A program made the translations under genes and the position numbers. Of a stretch of DNA of 64,000 nucleotides, positions 9,219-15,235 are shown in pieces; position 1 is the stretch's first letter, and the number at the start of each line of letters is the position of its first letter. The stretch comes from Candidatus Marinacidobacterales bacterium (GTDB lineage: Bacteria; Acidobacteriota; Vicinamibacteria; Marinacidobacterales; DATDRI01). Under the pieces are notes generated by a model. It was not told the origin of the DNA and searched no databases. It saw only the letters and a list, made by a program, of their open reading frames with translations. The stretch spans positions 1,408,001 through 1,472,000 of the forward strand of contig OZ245365.1 of assembly GCA_965226495.1 (NCBI GenBank), written 5' to 3'.

Positions 9219-9245
9219 TTAGCACTCGCGGTGTGCGAGTGCTAA
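9219..9245. promoter_or_regulatory. CIRCE element (HrcA operator)
   Basis: Perfect TTAGCACTC-N9-GAGTGCTAA upstream of hsp20-groES-groEL. Confidence 0.97.
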
Positions 9246-9282: not shown

Positions 9283-9404
9283 GCAAAAAGCTTAGTGGCT
9301 TTGATTTAGATCAGGAGCGCCCCTTTTCGAGCTATTCTACTGATAGTAAAGGACATAATTGGCGTGGCAACAGGTCGGTTTTCTGGCTGGGGAACCGAGC
9401 CTCA

Positions 9405-9433
9405 TTGACAGCTAGCTTCACCTAGCCCATAGT
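9405..9433 (+). promoter_or_regulatory. Sigma-70 promoter of archease-rtcB (probably leaderless mRNA)
   Basis: TTGACA-N17-CATAGT ending 8 nt before the GTG start at 9442; no Shine-Dalgarno in between. Confidence 0.65.
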
Positions 9434-9441
9434 CTGTTTCG

Positions 9442-9855
9442 GTGCCCTACCGAGTGCTGGACCACACGGCCGACTATATGGTCGAGGTCGCGGCGGAAGG
9501 AAAGCCGGAGCTCTTCTCCGAGGCCGCGAGAGCCCTTTTCGACATCATCACCGATTTGGAAACGGTAGAACCGCGGGAATCGGTCTCGCTCAGCGTCGAA
9601 GCCGAAAGCAGCGAAGAGCTCCTAGTGTCATGGCTCACCGAGCTTCTCTTTCTGTATGAGGACCAAGGATGGTTGTTTTCTCGATTCGATCCAAGGCTAG
9701 TGGGAGATCATCGGTTCGAAGCCGAGGCGTGGGGTGAGAAGCTCGATCCCGAGCGCCATCCCATTGATCGAGAGGTGAAGGGGGTGACGTACCATCGTAT
9801 GGCATTGGTGAGGCAGGGAAAACTCCTCAAGACGACGATCGTTTTCGATCTCTGA
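9442..9855 (+). CDS. Archease (RtcB activator)
   Basis: DHTAD at the N-terminus, EVKGVTYH, and C-terminal FDL; adjacent to rtcB. Confidence 0.95.
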
Positions 9856-9875
9856 AGCGTTCGAAAGGATACGCG

Positions 9876-11327
9876 ATGACAAGCAAAGTCAAGATTCAGA
9901 AAATCGACGACAACCGTTGGCGTATCCCGAGGGAAGGGAAGATGCGCGTCGAGGGTTTGGTCTTCGCGAGCGAGGCTTTCGTCTCCACCCTTCGCGGAGA
10001 TCCCGCCCTCGAGCAAGTCGCCAACGTCGCCGAGCTCCCCGGTATCGTTGGCCGGTCCATCGCGATGCCGGATATTCACTGGGGCTACGGTTTCGCTATC
10101 GGGGGCGTCGCCGCTTTCTCGCCGGAAGACGACGGCGTGGTTTCGCCAGGGGGGGTGGGTTTCGACATCAACTGAGGCGTCCGGCTGCTGCGCTCAGGTC
10201 TGAGTCGCAAGGACGTGGAAGGAAAACTACCGGAGTTGGTCGACACTCTCTTTGCCAATATCCCAACCGGCGTCGGGGCGCACCGTCGCGACCTAAAGCT
10301 CCCTCAGTCTGAGTTGCGACGAGTTCTCACGCGAGGTGCGGGTTGGGCAGTAGCCAACGGCTACGGTACCGACACCGACCTCGAGTACATCGAAGAAGGA
10401 GGCTGCCTCGAAGGTGCGGATCCAGACGAAGTCAGTCCCCGCGCCATCGAACGCGGGCGTCCGCAATTGGGGACCCTCGGTTCGGGGAATCACTTTGGCG
10501 AGGTCCAGTACGTCGCGGAAATCTACGACCAAAAGCTTGCCGATGCGCTGGGTTTATTCCCCGGACAGGTGACGGTCTCGATCCACACCGGTTCCCGCGG
10601 GCTCGGCTATCAGGTGTGTGACGACTTCTTGAAGATCATGCTGCGCGCTTCCGCCAAGTACGGCATCGAGCTTCCCGATCGCCAGCTTTGCGCTGCACCT
10701 CTGACCTCTCCAGAAGCGAAGCGTTATCTTGGTGCCATGTCGGCGGCGGCCAACTACGCTTTCGCTAACCGGCAAATGATCACGCACTTGGTGCGCGAGA
10801 GTTTCGAGAGTGTGCTGGGGATTGGCCGCGGGAAACTTGACCTCGGTTTGGTTTACGACGTTTGCCACAATATCGCCAAGTTCGAGGAGCACCAGGTCGG
10901 AGGCAGAAAGAAAAAACTATGCGTCCACCGTAAGGGAGCGACGCGAGCCTTTCCGCCTGGCCATCCCGAGATTCCCTCCGCCTACCGCGCCGTCGGTCAA
11001 CCGGTCCTCATCCCTGGGGACATGGGACGCTACTCCTATGTGTTGGTAGGCACGGAGCGCGCCTATCAGGAGACATTTGGAAGTACGTGCCACGGTGCCG
11101 GACGGCGCATGAGCCGTCGCCAGGCGCGGAAGACCGCCGGCAAACGCGCCATCGTTCGCGAGATGGCAGAGCAAGGGATTATCGTCCGAGCCTCCGGGAG
11201 AGCCACGTTGGTGGAGGAGATTCCGGAGGCTTATAAAGATGTTGCAGAAGTCGTGGATGTGGTCGAGGGAGCAGGCATCAGTCGGAAGGTTGCGCAACTC
11301 CGGCCGATGGGAGTCATTAAGGGCTAG
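9876..11327 (+). CDS. rtcB: RNA-splicing ligase RtcB, 483 aa, with an in-frame TGA (10173-10175) at the catalytic Cys; probable selenoprotein
   Basis: ORFs 9876..10175 and 10215..11327 share one frame. Motifs [20 protein letters not shown] (normally DINCGVR), GSGNHF, HTGSRG, CHN, CHGAGR and terminal IKG are all intact. Confidence 0.93.
10176..10215 (+). promoter_or_regulatory. Candidate bacterial SECIS element
   Basis: Hairpin directly after the TGA: CGTCC/GGACG lower stem, TGCG/CGCA plus CTCA/TGAG upper stem with a bulged T, GGTC apical loop 21 nt from the TGA. Confidence 0.78.
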
Positions 11328-11524
11328 CCAGGTGCGCTGGACGATTCAGGGCACGCTGTGCGCAATCACGCACTAATTTCTCAGCGTCATCACCGGATCG
11401 ACCCTCGTTGCCCGACGTGTCATTAAGGGCTAGCCAGGTGCGCTGGACGATTCAGGGCACGCTGTGCGCAATCACGCACTAATTTCTCAGCGTCATCACC
11501 GGATCGACCCTCGTTGCCCGACGT
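11313..11524. repeat. Exact 106-bp tandem duplication
   Basis: 11313-11418 is repeated at 11419-11524, covering the rtcB 3' end, the intergenic gap and the permease 3' end. Confidence 0.9.
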
Positions 11525-12486
11525 GCCGGCAAATAGGAAGCTAAGCCGGCGACCAGCAGCAACGCAAGCGGCGTCACCGCAAACGCCATGGGGTCGATGG
11601 GTTGGACTCCGTAGAGTAGGGTTGCCAAGACTCGCGCCAAGATGAAAGTCATTGGCGCTCCGAGGGCCAAACCGGCGACGGTCAGAGCCAATTCTCTGCG
11701 CATGACTCCAGAAAGCAGGGAGGAACGCGGCGCGCCAAGGGCCATTCGGATCCCGAGCTCATGTGTTCTCTGTTTCACTACGTAAGAGAGAACTCCGTAG
11801 AGACCGAGGCCGGCCAGGAGAAGACCGAAAAACGCGAAGCACGCGAGCACCGAAGCGTAGAGCCGAGGGCGTGCGACGATGGTCGAGAATGCGGTGTCCA
11901 ACGAGGCGACCTCGTGAACCACGCGGGACTCCAATTCTCTCGAGGCCTTGCCAACTTGAACGGTGAGGGTTTCCGGCTCGACGGAGCCCCTAACTACCAA
12001 GCCCATCGAGCTCCAAGGAAATTGCGCGTGAGGTACGTAGACCTGAGGCTCAACGATCGCGGCTGGTCCGAAGTGGCTGATATCATCGACCACACCGACG
12101 ATCTCGCGGGCAAGTAGCTCGTCTCCGGTGAACGTGATGTCGAAGACGATGCGGCGTCCGATCGGATCCCGGTCGGCGCAGTGCCGGCGCGCGAGCTCAC
12201 GGCTGACGATCACCGCCGGTGTCGAATCGGCCGAGTCACGATTGTCGAACCATCGTCCTTCGATGAGCCGCGCCCCCAGCGTTTCGAAGAACCCCGGGCT
12301 AATGACGTGCGTTAACGCTCTTGGGGTTTCCGACGCCGGTGGTGTCGGATCTCCCTCCACCGCATAGTCTGCTCGGTCGGCTTGTTTGGCTACGCGAATT
12401 CATAAAGTAAGTGCAACACAGCTCCCGGATGAGGTGACCTGGAATGTGCCACGATTCCTCAAACAACCAAGAATGGGGACTCGCTA

Positions 12487-13506
12487 ATGACTTATTACCA
12501 GATCACCTCGGAAGAACGCTACACCATCGCGGCGCTGCGACGGGAGGGATTTTGCTCGGCCGAGATCGCGCGGCGCCTGGGGCGCCACCGGAGCACCATC
12601 TCGAGAGAGGTCAGGAGGAACAGCTCACCTAGTGATGGATGCTACCGGCCGAGCAAGGCCATCGAGAGAACGAACGGACGACGCTCGCGGTCTCGCCGGA
12701 ACCAGTACTTCACAAAGGCCGACTTTGCCCTGGTGGAGAAGAAGCTTAAGGCCGACTGGAGCCCAGAGCAGATCTCCGGCCACCTGCGCCTTCACGGCGA
12801 GCTCTCGATCAGCCACGAGACGATCTACACCCACGTTTGGCGGGACAAGGAGGCCGGAGGACATCTATACCGCCACCTTCGATGCTCGCCCAAACTTAGA
12901 CGCAAGCGCCACAACAGCTACGACAGCCGAGGCCGCCTGGCCGGGAAGCGTCACATCTCCGAGCGGCCGTCTTGTATCGACAAGCGCCGTGCCGTTGGCC
13001 ACTGGGAGATTGACACCGTGGTAGGAAAAGACGCGCCGGACTGCGTCACCACGCTCGTGGAACGAAAGACGGGCTATGCGCTGATCGGCAAACTGTCCGA
13101 CCGCAGCATGTTCGGCACTAGCCAGCGAACGAAGATGTTGCTCCGGCGGGTGCCGGATCAGGTCAAGACCATCACCGCGGACAATGGCACGGAGTTCCAC
13201 GACTACGAATCCGTCGAGGAAGCGACCGGCGTCAAGTTCTACTTTGCAACTCCCTATCACTCATGGGAGAGAGGCAGCAACGAGAACTTCAATGGATTGC
13301 TACGACAATACCTGCCGAAGCGCACCAGCCAAGCAGCGCTCACGCAACGCCACTGCGATGGTATCGCAAAGAAGCTCAACACACGGCCCCGCAAGAGGCT
13401 CGGTTACCGCACACCGGAGGAACGTTTCCATGGGCAAGAGGCTCGGTTACCGCACACCGGAGGAACGTTTCCATGGGAACTAACGAATGGTGCGCTTCAA
13501 ACTTGA
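12487..13506 (+). CDS. IS30 family transposase (C-terminus altered by a 43-bp duplication)
   Basis: HTH RHRSTISREVRRN, WSPEQI, GHWEIDTV, TADNGTEF, WERGSNEN, RPRKRLGYRTP. Confidence 0.95.
   Translation: MTYYQITSEERYTIAALRREGFCSAEIARRLGRHRSTISREVRRNSSPSDGCYRPSKAIERTNGRRSRSRRNQYFTKADFALVEKKLKADWSPEQISGHLRLHGELSISHETIYTHVWRDKEAGGHLYRHLRCSPKLRRKRHNSYDSRGRLAGKRHISERPSCIDKRRAVGHWEIDTVVGKDAPDCVTTLVERKTGYALIGKLSDRSMFGTSQRTKMLLRRVPDQVKTITADNGTEFHDYESVEEATGVKFYFATPYHSWERGSNENFNGLLRQYLPKRTSQAALTQRHCDGIAKKLNTRPRKRLGYRTPEERFHGQEARLPHTGGTFPWELTNGALQT
13391..13477. repeat. 43-bp tandem duplication inside the IS30 transposase 3' end
   Basis: GCAAGAGGCTCGGTTACCGCACACCGGAGGAACGTTTCCATGG occurs twice in tandem. 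Confidence 0.9.
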
Positions 13507-15235
13507 AGTCACACTACGTAAGGCACCTGCAGGGTCGCGCCAACGGAGCTCACTCCCGGGAGCCGTCTCACATCTCGTAAGAGATTCTCGAAGAACGCGG
13601 CCCTCCGCGCCGGTTCGGGGTACTGGCGGAAGGGCAACGAGACGCGCAGAGAAACGACTTCCTCGGGCTCGAAGCCGGGATCTTTCTGCTGGAGGAAAAT
13701 GAAGCTGTGGATCAACAGGCCGGCGCCGATCAGTAGCGGTAGTGCGATGGTGACTTGACCCACGACGAATAGATCCTTGAATCGACTACCCGCCGAGCTG
13801 GTGTTTTTTCCCGCCTCTCTGAGGAAGCCGGCGGCAATATCTCCCCTCAACATCAGGAAGCTTGGTAAGAGGCCAAAGACGACGGTCGACCCGAGGGCCA
13901 GCACCATAGTGAAGCTCAGAACCGCATGGTCCACGCCGAGCCCCTCCGCGCGCGGGAGACCTGGCGGTAGCAAGGTGGATAGCGCCGGAAGTACCCAGAG
14001 CACGATGGTCAGGGCCAGCGCGGCTCCGGCGAGAGCGAGCAACAGGCTCTCTGCCAACACTTGGCGCACCAGATCACCCCGGCCGCCTCCCAGCGCCAAC
14101 CGAATCGCGATCTCCCGCCGATCGCTCATGATGCGAGAGAGCATGAGGTTGGCGATGTTGGCGCAGGCGATGAGGAGGACGAACCCCACCGCGGCCTGGA
14201 GCAGGTAGAGTCCCGGCCTCGTTTGGCCGACGAAAGAATCGAGTACCGGTTCTACCGACACTTTCCACCCGGCGTAGGTCTCAGGGAAGTCTTGCGCCAG
14301 CCGATGGCTTACCACTTGAAGGTGGGTCGTTGCTGCCCCAATGGATACACCGGGCTCGAGTCGGCCGAAAGCGGTGTAGATCCGAAAGTGGGGATTGCTG
14401 GGATTTTCTCCCGCTCGCAAGGCGACCCATAGCTCGGGACTCGCCTCGCTTCCCAGATCGTGGCCGTAGATCTCCGGAGGAGCAACCCCGATCATGGTGT
14501 GATCGATTCCACCGAGGTTGAGCACTTGACCCAGCGCGCCGGCATCGCCGCCCAGTCGCTCGAGCCAGAACCGGTGGCTCACCACGGTGAGCGGCAGACT
14601 ATCCGCGGCCTCGTCTTCCTTGCCAAAGAATCTCCCGGCGGCCGGTCGAACGCCGAACACGTCGAAGTAGTTGGCGGATACGACTCCGTGGTTGACTTGC
14701 TCGTTCCACTGGCTGGTGCGCCACATGACACCGAAATAGGTCGAGAACGCGAGATCGGAGAAGCCTTCGCCCTCCCGCCGCCACGCGCGGGCCTCCGAGA
14801 CGGATGTCCAATCGAGATGGCCTTCGGCCTCGTTGAGGGAGAGGATGCGCACCAGCCGATCCGGATCTATGTAGGGGAGTGGGCGCAGCAAGATGGAGTA
14901 GACGATGCTTGAAGACCAAGGTGGTGGCGGAGATACCGAGGGTCAGGACCGAGACCACTCCTAGAGCGAAGCCGGGTGCCCTGCGGAGCCTTCGCCAAGC
15001 GTAGCGAATGTCGTTCGAGAGGAATCTCACCATGTCACTGTCGATTTGCAATAACTATACCGCGCGGAACCCTCGTGAACCGCCGAGAATCGCGGTCGAC
15101 CCGTCACCAACTCTGGTCGATGCCCGCCATCGGGACGACCGGCTCCCGAAAACGGACAGCTTTGTTCGCCGGCGGTTTTGACAACAACTTCCGCACCGGG
15201 GTATAGGGAAGCTTCACTGCTTGAGCGGAAACACG

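Follow-up and report, generated by a model that had tools for sequence, protein, structure and literature searches.

A UGA codon followed by a SECIS-type hairpin is predicted to encode selenocysteine at the metal-bridging position of the RNA ligase RtcB in a Candidatus Marinacidobacterales bacterium

The rtcB gene in the analyzed window (64,000 nt of contig OZ245365.1, positions 1,408,001 to 1,472,000) has an in-frame TGA at codon 100, and the hairpin directly downstream (10189–10209) is very likely a real bacterial selenocysteine insertion sequence (SECIS) lying within the rtcB coding sequence. Comparison with related genes makes it highly probable that this UGA is recoded as selenocysteine (Sec). 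SECIS-driven insertion of Sec100 would likely yield an intact, active RtcB, a reading that also takes in SelB binding, ligase activity, and a benefit to the cell; it is held with less confidence than the recoding because an engineered P. horikoshii RtcB with Sec98 was recovered cleaved. The SECIS itself is of the ordinary bacterial kind. What is new is the gene that it serves, a Sec variant of the known enzyme RtcB. The features, in window coordinates, are as follows.

9442..9855, + strand: archease gene (PF01951, E = 2.5e-40), with its stop 20 bp before the rtcB start
9876..11327, + strand: rtcB, 3'-phosphate/5'-OH RNA ligase (PF01139, homologous to 2epg), 483 aa if the TGA is read through
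10173..10175, + strand: in-frame TGA, codon 100 of rtcB (GFDIN-U-GVR), predicted selenocysteine, aligned to P. horikoshii Cys98
10178..10215, + strand: lower stem CGUCC/GGACG, which can form here and is unconserved
10189..10209, + strand: upper stem-loop of the putative bacterial SECIS
10197..10200, + strand: apical loop GGUC of 4 nt, or 6 nt with A10196-U10201 open, the presumed SelB contact

The TGA at 10173–10175 is the sole in-frame TGA in an otherwise intact 483-codon frame. Scanned with C substituted for U, the translated product matched PF01139 at 590 bits (cut-off 27) over profile positions 1–426 of 426, and it aligned to T. thermophilus 2epg (E = 8.7e-190) and P. horikoshii 7lfq (E = 4e-173). 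Active-site residues D97, N205, H206, E209, H237, H331, N332, H406, and K482 are present, with D97, H206, H237, H331, and H406 corresponding to P. horikoshii Asp95, His203, His234, His329, and the nucleophile His404. The first four of these are invariant in 101/101 aligned TGA proteins, and H406 is found in 100/101. Residue 100 (U100) occupies the alignment column of Cys98, which bridges two Mn ions in P. horikoshii RtcB and whose change to Ala is reported to abolish all reaction steps (PMC9745838). A TGA, predicted to encode Sec, stands in place of this bridging Cys, making the protein a variant rather than a canonical Cys-RtcB. It shares full-length homology with Cys-type RtcB acting with archease (P. 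horikoshii PH1602, structures 1uc2, 4dwq, and 7lfq; T. thermophilus TTHA1785, structure 2epg; human RTCB), and likewise retains all the metal ligands, the guanylylated His, and an upstream archease gene. The difference is the source of the bridging ligand, a UGA plus SECIS here and a Cys codon there. All nine solved relatives found belong to Cys lineages, and both alignments shown have Cys at the residue-100 column. The archease is probably the activation partner of this RtcB and is probably co-transcribed with it. A 208-nt metatranscriptome contig (depth 2.6) matches 9816–10022; it ends short of the TGA and is no proof of transcription.

Several other features flank this gene pair. An exact 106-bp tandem duplication (11313–11525) takes in the stop codon of rtcB together with the end of a convergent permease gene; it is probably an assembly artifact or strain-specific, since contigs of three public runs have a single copy (joint 11312 to 11419). 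A perfect inverted repeat, TTAGCACTC-N9-GAGTGCTAA, lies at 9219–9245, upstream of a minus-strand hsp20-groES-groEL cluster that is divergent from archease-rtcB. It is the only such match in the window, with none in 100 shuffles, and it is presumably CIRCE, the HrcA operator. A transposase-like gene (12487–13506; HTH_38 plus integrase core), presumably IS30-like, sits between permease-like frames at 13509–14891 and 11479–12360 (minus strand) and contains an exact 43-bp tandem duplication at 13391–13477.

Public gene calling splits rtcB into exactly 99-aa and 370-aa products, and 890 of the genome's 2114 long frames end in TGA, more than in any other stop. Both facts would fit a TGA that arose by sequencing error or that truly terminates translation, leaving a pseudogene or a gene split into two parts. 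A gene divided in this way would be missing its essential metal ligand, the residue whose loss by Cys-to-Ala change is described as fatal to all steps (PMC9745838), and the genome has no other full-length rtcB match. A short-read contig from another public run (X7) spans 9924–11036, including the codon, with zero differing letters, and the remaining frame is intact. Runs from eight studies contain this stretch in whole or in part, and any single run could be the source of the window. The same codon also recurs among relatives. Of seven full-length rtcB genes in the 41 genomes searched from the organism's own family, six have TGA, its own included, and one (genome G006) has TGC. A pattern scan of public genome contigs placed TGA at the rtcB site in at least 119 stretches from several phyla, and the 80 matches listed include Acidobacteriota, Nitrospirota, Desulfobacterota, other delta-proteobacteria, Binatia, Polyangiaceae, Eisenbacteria, and Gemmatimonadales; viral contigs gave no match to the pattern. 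Codon-blind sampling found TGA to be a minority within the organism's own phylum (13/137 rtcB matches in 401 genomes) and present in 6/42 matches from 151 genomes of Nitrospirota, the phylum of genome G485. Of the 104 TGA loci that reach a stop, 100 stay open for 370 codons or more past the TGA, enough for a full-length C-terminal part. All 118 public proteins with the motif read C at this site, in a collection that writes U as C. Neither selA nor selB was detected in the genome that contains TGA locus L085, which would suit a true stop, but the frame of this locus is itself broken 133 codons on. On this comparative evidence, the shared TGA (six of seven family genes, at least 119 stretches, and contig X7) appears to exclude a sequencing error or nonsense mutation, and we give the error-or-stop explanation almost no credence.

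The hairpin was initially described in the first-pass annotation as a two-stem element, and its geometry is correct. The lower stem pairs CGTCC (10178–82) with GGACG (10211–15) after the TGA at 10173–10175, the upper stem pairs TGCGCTCA (10189–96) with TGAGTCGCA (10201–09) around a bulged T10205, and the GGTC loop (10197–10200) begins 21 nt past the TGA. Folding with ViennaRNA gave −13.7 kcal/mol for this structure and −14.0 kcal/mol for the minimum, a difference of 0.3 kcal/mol. The conserved core of the upper stem, GCTCA-GGTC-TGAGT, occupies 10192–10205 (+17 to +30 after the TGA) and is extended past the bulged U10205 by pairs G10190-C10208, C10191-G10207, and G10192-C10206. Positions 10176–10215 offer five contiguous pairs, or eight with one bulge, at −14.0 kcal/mol, in agreement with published SECIS stem and loop criteria. 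The bacterial SECIS model summarized in PMC13188914 places the element in the coding region just 3' of an in-frame UGA with 16–37 nt between the UGA and the apical loop, a range that includes the 21 nt found here. Only one of the two stems is conserved. In the ensemble, three core pairs of the upper stem have a probability of 0.81 versus 0.39–0.50 for the lower-stem pairs, and all five lower pairs occur in just 11 of 127 type-A TGA genes (the main hairpin type, defined below) and 6 of 104 Cys genes. The upper stem-loop thus stands as described, and the lower stem CGUCC/GGACG is probably incidental and outside the conserved element.

Taken alone, this single hairpin is weak evidence. Its folding stability is unremarkable (z = −0.55, with 50 of the 200 dinucleotide-shuffled controls folding equally well), 6.5% of 5000 synonymous re-codings of its peptide regenerate the upper hairpin, the octamer at its apex sits 14–24 nt downstream of 13 TGA triplets in the genome, and Rfam has no match at E ≤ 10 across 9300–11600. 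Two possible tests were rejected as undiscriminating. Folding energy hardly separates the groups (mean z of −0.54 for type-A genes and −0.24 for Cys genes), and the generic published rules for loop, stem, and spacing (PMC13188914) are passed by 127/127 type-A genes but also by 71/104 Cys genes. The first-pass annotation had presented the hairpin as an independent signal that made an error or nonsense mutation unlikely; that conclusion stands, carried by the comparison among genomes and not by the single hairpin.

The comparison set was drawn from 267 motif hits, from which eight duplicates and one TGA row with a short flank were removed, leaving 154 TGA genes (127 type A, the main type, and 27 type B) and 104 Cys genes. 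A hairpin was scored as at least four pairs closing a loop within +21 to +26 with G at +22 or +23. By this rule, it is present in 124/127 type-A genes, 0/27 type-B genes (124/154 of all TGA genes), and 5/104 Cys genes, counts that overstate significance because the rule and the A/B split were set after the TGA genes had been seen and related genomes are not independent. Loci chosen from metagenomes by protein similarity alone gave the same pattern, with the hairpin in 22/22 TGA and 2/38 Cys genes, as did loci from the organism's own phylum (13/14 TGA vs 3/66 Cys). The type-A loop has G at +22 in 114/127 genes and at +23 in 115/127. An archease gene lies upstream of 72/79 type-A, 15/18 type-B, and 61/93 Cys rtcB genes with enough flanking sequence.

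Type-A hairpins fall into two registers. The first comprises 97 genes, including the one studied here, and has an invariant C+20-G+27 pair and a nearly unvarying stem. In the second (30 genes), a one-base offset of the 3' strand produces a larger loop without the bulge and leaves the frame unchanged. Compensatory pairs are evident among these 30 shifted-register genes at +19/+29 (A-U in 18, U-A in 11), +18/+30 (G-C in 16, C-G in 11), and +16/+32 (C-G in 12, A-U in 11). Swapping these pairs alters the encoded peptide (RSGLER, KTSLVF, RTGLVL), which argues that the RNA shapes the protein. Codons otherwise rare in the same genes are preferred in the stem-loop, with TCA making up 73/108 Ser codons (13% share in these genes) and GGT 78/103 (17% share). 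S107, G108, and S110, the three residues encoded by the hairpin, are among the positions at which Sec and Cys forms differ most clearly.

These patterns bear on whether the hairpin is simply a by-product of a conserved peptide, R-S-G-L-S, with no role in decoding. Its location in coding sequence, its weak stability (z = −0.55), and its occurrence in five Cys genes would be expected of such a by-product, but synonymous shuffles of the same peptides that keep each gene's codon usage yield only 8.5/127 hairpins against 124 observed. Pairing also survives changes that alter the peptide (RSGLS, RSGLE, KTSLV, RTGLV). Furthermore, all five Cys carriers are placed among TGA genes, and Cys sisters L289 and L293 encode the same peptide and have lost the pairing. 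A by-product is accordingly scarcely credible. Had the hairpin been equally common in Cys-encoding homologs or missing from other TGA homologs, its proposed role as a SECIS would have failed; instead, it tracks the TGA, is rare in Cys genes, and shows compensatory changes. Two TGA rtcB genes have neither hairpin type: L153, which has an S-U-G motif and belongs to another RtcB subgroup, and L283, which groups with a Cys gene. These are possibly separate gains of Sec with SECIS elements of their own.

The apex can be compared with a characterized element. The first-pass annotation noted that the E. coli fdhF SECIS shares its apical octamer, and in E. coli K-12 the fdhF gene indeed has CAGGTCTG at +17 after the TGA, while in rtcB the octamer is at +20. 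Both elements are in-frame and directly 3' of the UGA, with an identical apical octamer (CAGGUCUG) and a short, bulged upper stem. The rtcB element differs in that its apex is one codon farther from the UGA (+20 vs +17), its bulged U is on the 3' strand rather than on the 5' strand as in the fdhF fold, and it has no conserved lower stem and serves an RNA ligase rather than an oxidoreductase.

The genome (6.34 Mb, one contig) encodes selA, selB, and selD, each above curated profile cut-offs, and ARAGORN identified a tRNA-Sec(UCA) at C1:173953–174050, so that selA, selB, selC, and selD occur together in one genome. Its selD has a TGA of its own, and its formate dehydrogenase gene has a TGA in the UHxP motif, which is listed for FdhA in PMC13188914, followed by a similar apex (CCAGTCTG) at +17. 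Of the 169,872 TGA triplets in the genome, 496 are followed by an octamer-like word, for the most part by chance; rtcB and a formate dehydrogenase gene were the only hits that could be recognized, and the scan does not define a selenoproteome. Genome-wide UGA reassignment was rejected, given the use of TGA as the commonest stop. Two tmRNAs were called by ARAGORN (C1:408773–409255 and 5341135–5341482), the first of which overlaps a tRNA-Thr, has an atypical tag, and is probably false. Other genomes with a TGA rtcB mostly encode Sec machinery too. Of 50 tested from the at least 119 stretches, 47 have selA; two of the remaining three have selB, and the third (G478, containing locus L085) has neither. 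Within the organism's own phylum, selA is found in 17/17 TGA genomes and 57/63 hand-picked Cys genomes, and selA co-occurrence was therefore rejected as a test there, being necessary yet undiscriminating.

A UGA and hairpin could also be decoded as cysteine by a mimic of tRNA-Sec, such as the selC* tRNA-Cys with a UCA anticodon. According to PMC5389517, delta-proteobacteria have tRNAs of this sort, Nitrospirae contain selC* genes as well, and in E. coli one of the tRNAs inserted Cys at an opal Sec codon. Both groups hold many of the TGA rtcB genes among the matches listed. The second UCA call in this genome, 2.4 kb from tRNA-Sec (C1:173953–176451), repeats 71 nt of the 3' part of that tRNA at 97% identity. 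It looks like the scar left at an attachment site when a small island inserted into selC, and as a 3' duplicate of selC it was rejected as a special decoder. ARAGORN, which can miss odd tRNAs, thus gives one complete tRNA-Sec, and there is one selB above the cut-off with no second copy, so that ARAGORN and the selB profile reveal neither the extra UCA selC*-type tRNA nor the second selB that mark selC* opal suppression. In PMC5389517, selC* is described beside a complete Sec system rather than replacing it. Cysteine decoding by such a tRNA is thus very unlikely.

The history of the site was reconstructed with a FastTree of 199 near-full-length proteins from which the recoded site and hairpin-coded residues were removed. 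The site changes between Sec and Cys 23 times or more on this tree, a figure that applies to a TGA-enriched sample and this single topology. The nearest named proteins to the RtcB studied here are from Acidobacteriota. Hairpin-bearing Cys genes L021, L221, L228, L290, and L294 all fall among TGA genes. L021, from genome G006, is nested inside the TGA clade of the organism's own family, is 88% identical to the rtcB studied here, and is found in a genome that retains selA and selB. These five and L355, a further Cys-codon gene with a SECIS-like hairpin, are probable recent Sec-to-Cys reversions.

Type-B genes form a single Nitrospirota clade (19/19 on the tree, support 1.0). The 27 genes (L057, L059, L060, L064–L066, L072–L074, and 18 more) are Nitrospirota where named. 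Their hairpin is long, from about +11 to +53 after the TGA, and folds far more stably than its synonymous shuffles do (mean z = −4.2), with a loop of about 9 nt that is mostly A-rich and has no leading G. In the Nitrospirota sample, this hairpin was found in 6/6 TGA genes versus 1/12 of the closest Cys genes. Among the selD genes of type-B rtcB genomes, two of three caught by the motif show an ordinary small GGU loop, which argues that type B is not simply a lineage style. The type-B long hairpin is a candidate non-canonical SECIS class. The family seems to have solved decoding in two ways, mostly with a short fdhF-like hairpin and, in Nitrospirota, with a long hairpin whose purine-rich loop lies outside the current SECIS model.

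From the observed sequence, position, frame, Sec machinery, TGA-linked conservation, and covariation, we infer the following route. SelB-GTP-Sec-tRNA(Sec) would bind the G-rich GGUC apical loop of 10189–10209 and deliver Sec to the UGA 21 nt upstream, giving a full-length 483-aa RtcB with Sec100. The Sec would replace Cys as a selenolate bridging two Mn2+ ions, and Sec-RtcB with archease would follow the usual path, in which GTP yields His406-GMP and then RNA-3'-pp-G before the 3'-5' joining with a 5'-OH end. Oxidation of Cys98 to sulfonate is reported to block metal binding (PMC9745838, PMC8051266), and Sec resists irreversible oxidation (PMC13188914). Together, these properties suggest that the likeliest benefit would be a fully ionized metal ligand resisting the irreversible oxidation that kills Cys-RtcB. 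The benefit would be modest or conditional, and Sec not essential, since many Sec-using relatives keep Cys. As a side effect, ligase synthesis would depend on selenium supply.

Evidence from an engineered protein must be weighed against an intact product. P. horikoshii RtcB C98U is the same enzyme with Sec at the corresponding residue, but it is artificial (UAG and an EF-Tu route, no SECIS), was used only as a reporter, and was recovered cleaved beside residue 98, a region described as the intein junction of this protein (PMC4150793), while the rtcB codon studied here is natural and conserved. Sec at position 98 can therefore destabilize the chain. One alternative is that Sec is inserted but the chain is later broken, after synthesis or on oxidation, at or beside the Asn99-Sec100 bond, the family intein site. 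The product would be an RNA-repair selenoenzyme with a Mn-bridging selenolate, either a two-chain ligase that its fold keeps together or one with an oxidation-triggered self-destruct, a redox or selenium switch, and its ligation would be gated both at the SECIS, through selenium supply, and at the protein, through its redox state. Asn precedes the TGA in all 101 aligned full-length TGA proteins, but Asn99 is also kept in 92/98 Cys forms and is therefore unspecific. Four NCBIfam models match the product, none of them a Sec-RtcB model; the best is an intein-containing RtcB model that resumes at residue 99. The cleavage itself was recorded for one heterologous, lab-purified construct from a Cys lineage, in a section of PMC4150793 that gives no ligase assay, and the cut may reflect oxidative damage during purification. 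Long retention of Sec across phyla also argues for a working product. Cleavage at this site is thus unlikely, and natural Sec-RtcB may be adapted to Sec.

We found no earlier description of this variant in the sources searched. RtcB is absent from the 119 selenoprotein families tabulated in a review of May 2026 (PMC13188914, Table 1; word search of the main text), from the four supplements of deep-Sep (PMC12013277; word search with a working positive control), and, as the word 'RtcB', from the main text of the BSepDB paper (PMC13326102), the part that this word search covered. Searches of open full-text literature likewise showed no natural Sec-RtcB among the matches listed. The variant has parallels among catalogued proteins in which Sec is a metal ligand (FdhA with Mo/W-Sec, [NiFeSe] hydrogenases, HgcA, and SaoL; PMC13188914), where Sec also stands in for a metal-binding Cys and Cys homologs are commoner. 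Those proteins are redox or organometallic, whereas RtcB catalyzes a non-redox nucleotidyl transfer at a two-Mn center in which the residue bridges both metals.

Almost every bacterial selenoprotein catalogued so far works in redox or organometallic chemistry, and a widespread Sec-RtcB would put selenium into a non-redox, two-metal RNA ligase. The Sec would sit at the very residue whose oxidation inactivates RtcB (PMC8051266; human RTCB, PMC12263435). Many genomes have probably been mis-scored as having a broken rtcB because standard gene calling splits the TGA gene in two. Hairpin types A and B together offer naturally occurring material with which bacterial SECIS models could be refined. Close sister pairs (L021, 88% identity) make the gain of Sec over Cys testable in an enzyme that is cleanly assayed and has many solved structures, and since the engineered C98U protein fell apart, natural Sec-RtcB would directly test the site's tolerance of Sec.
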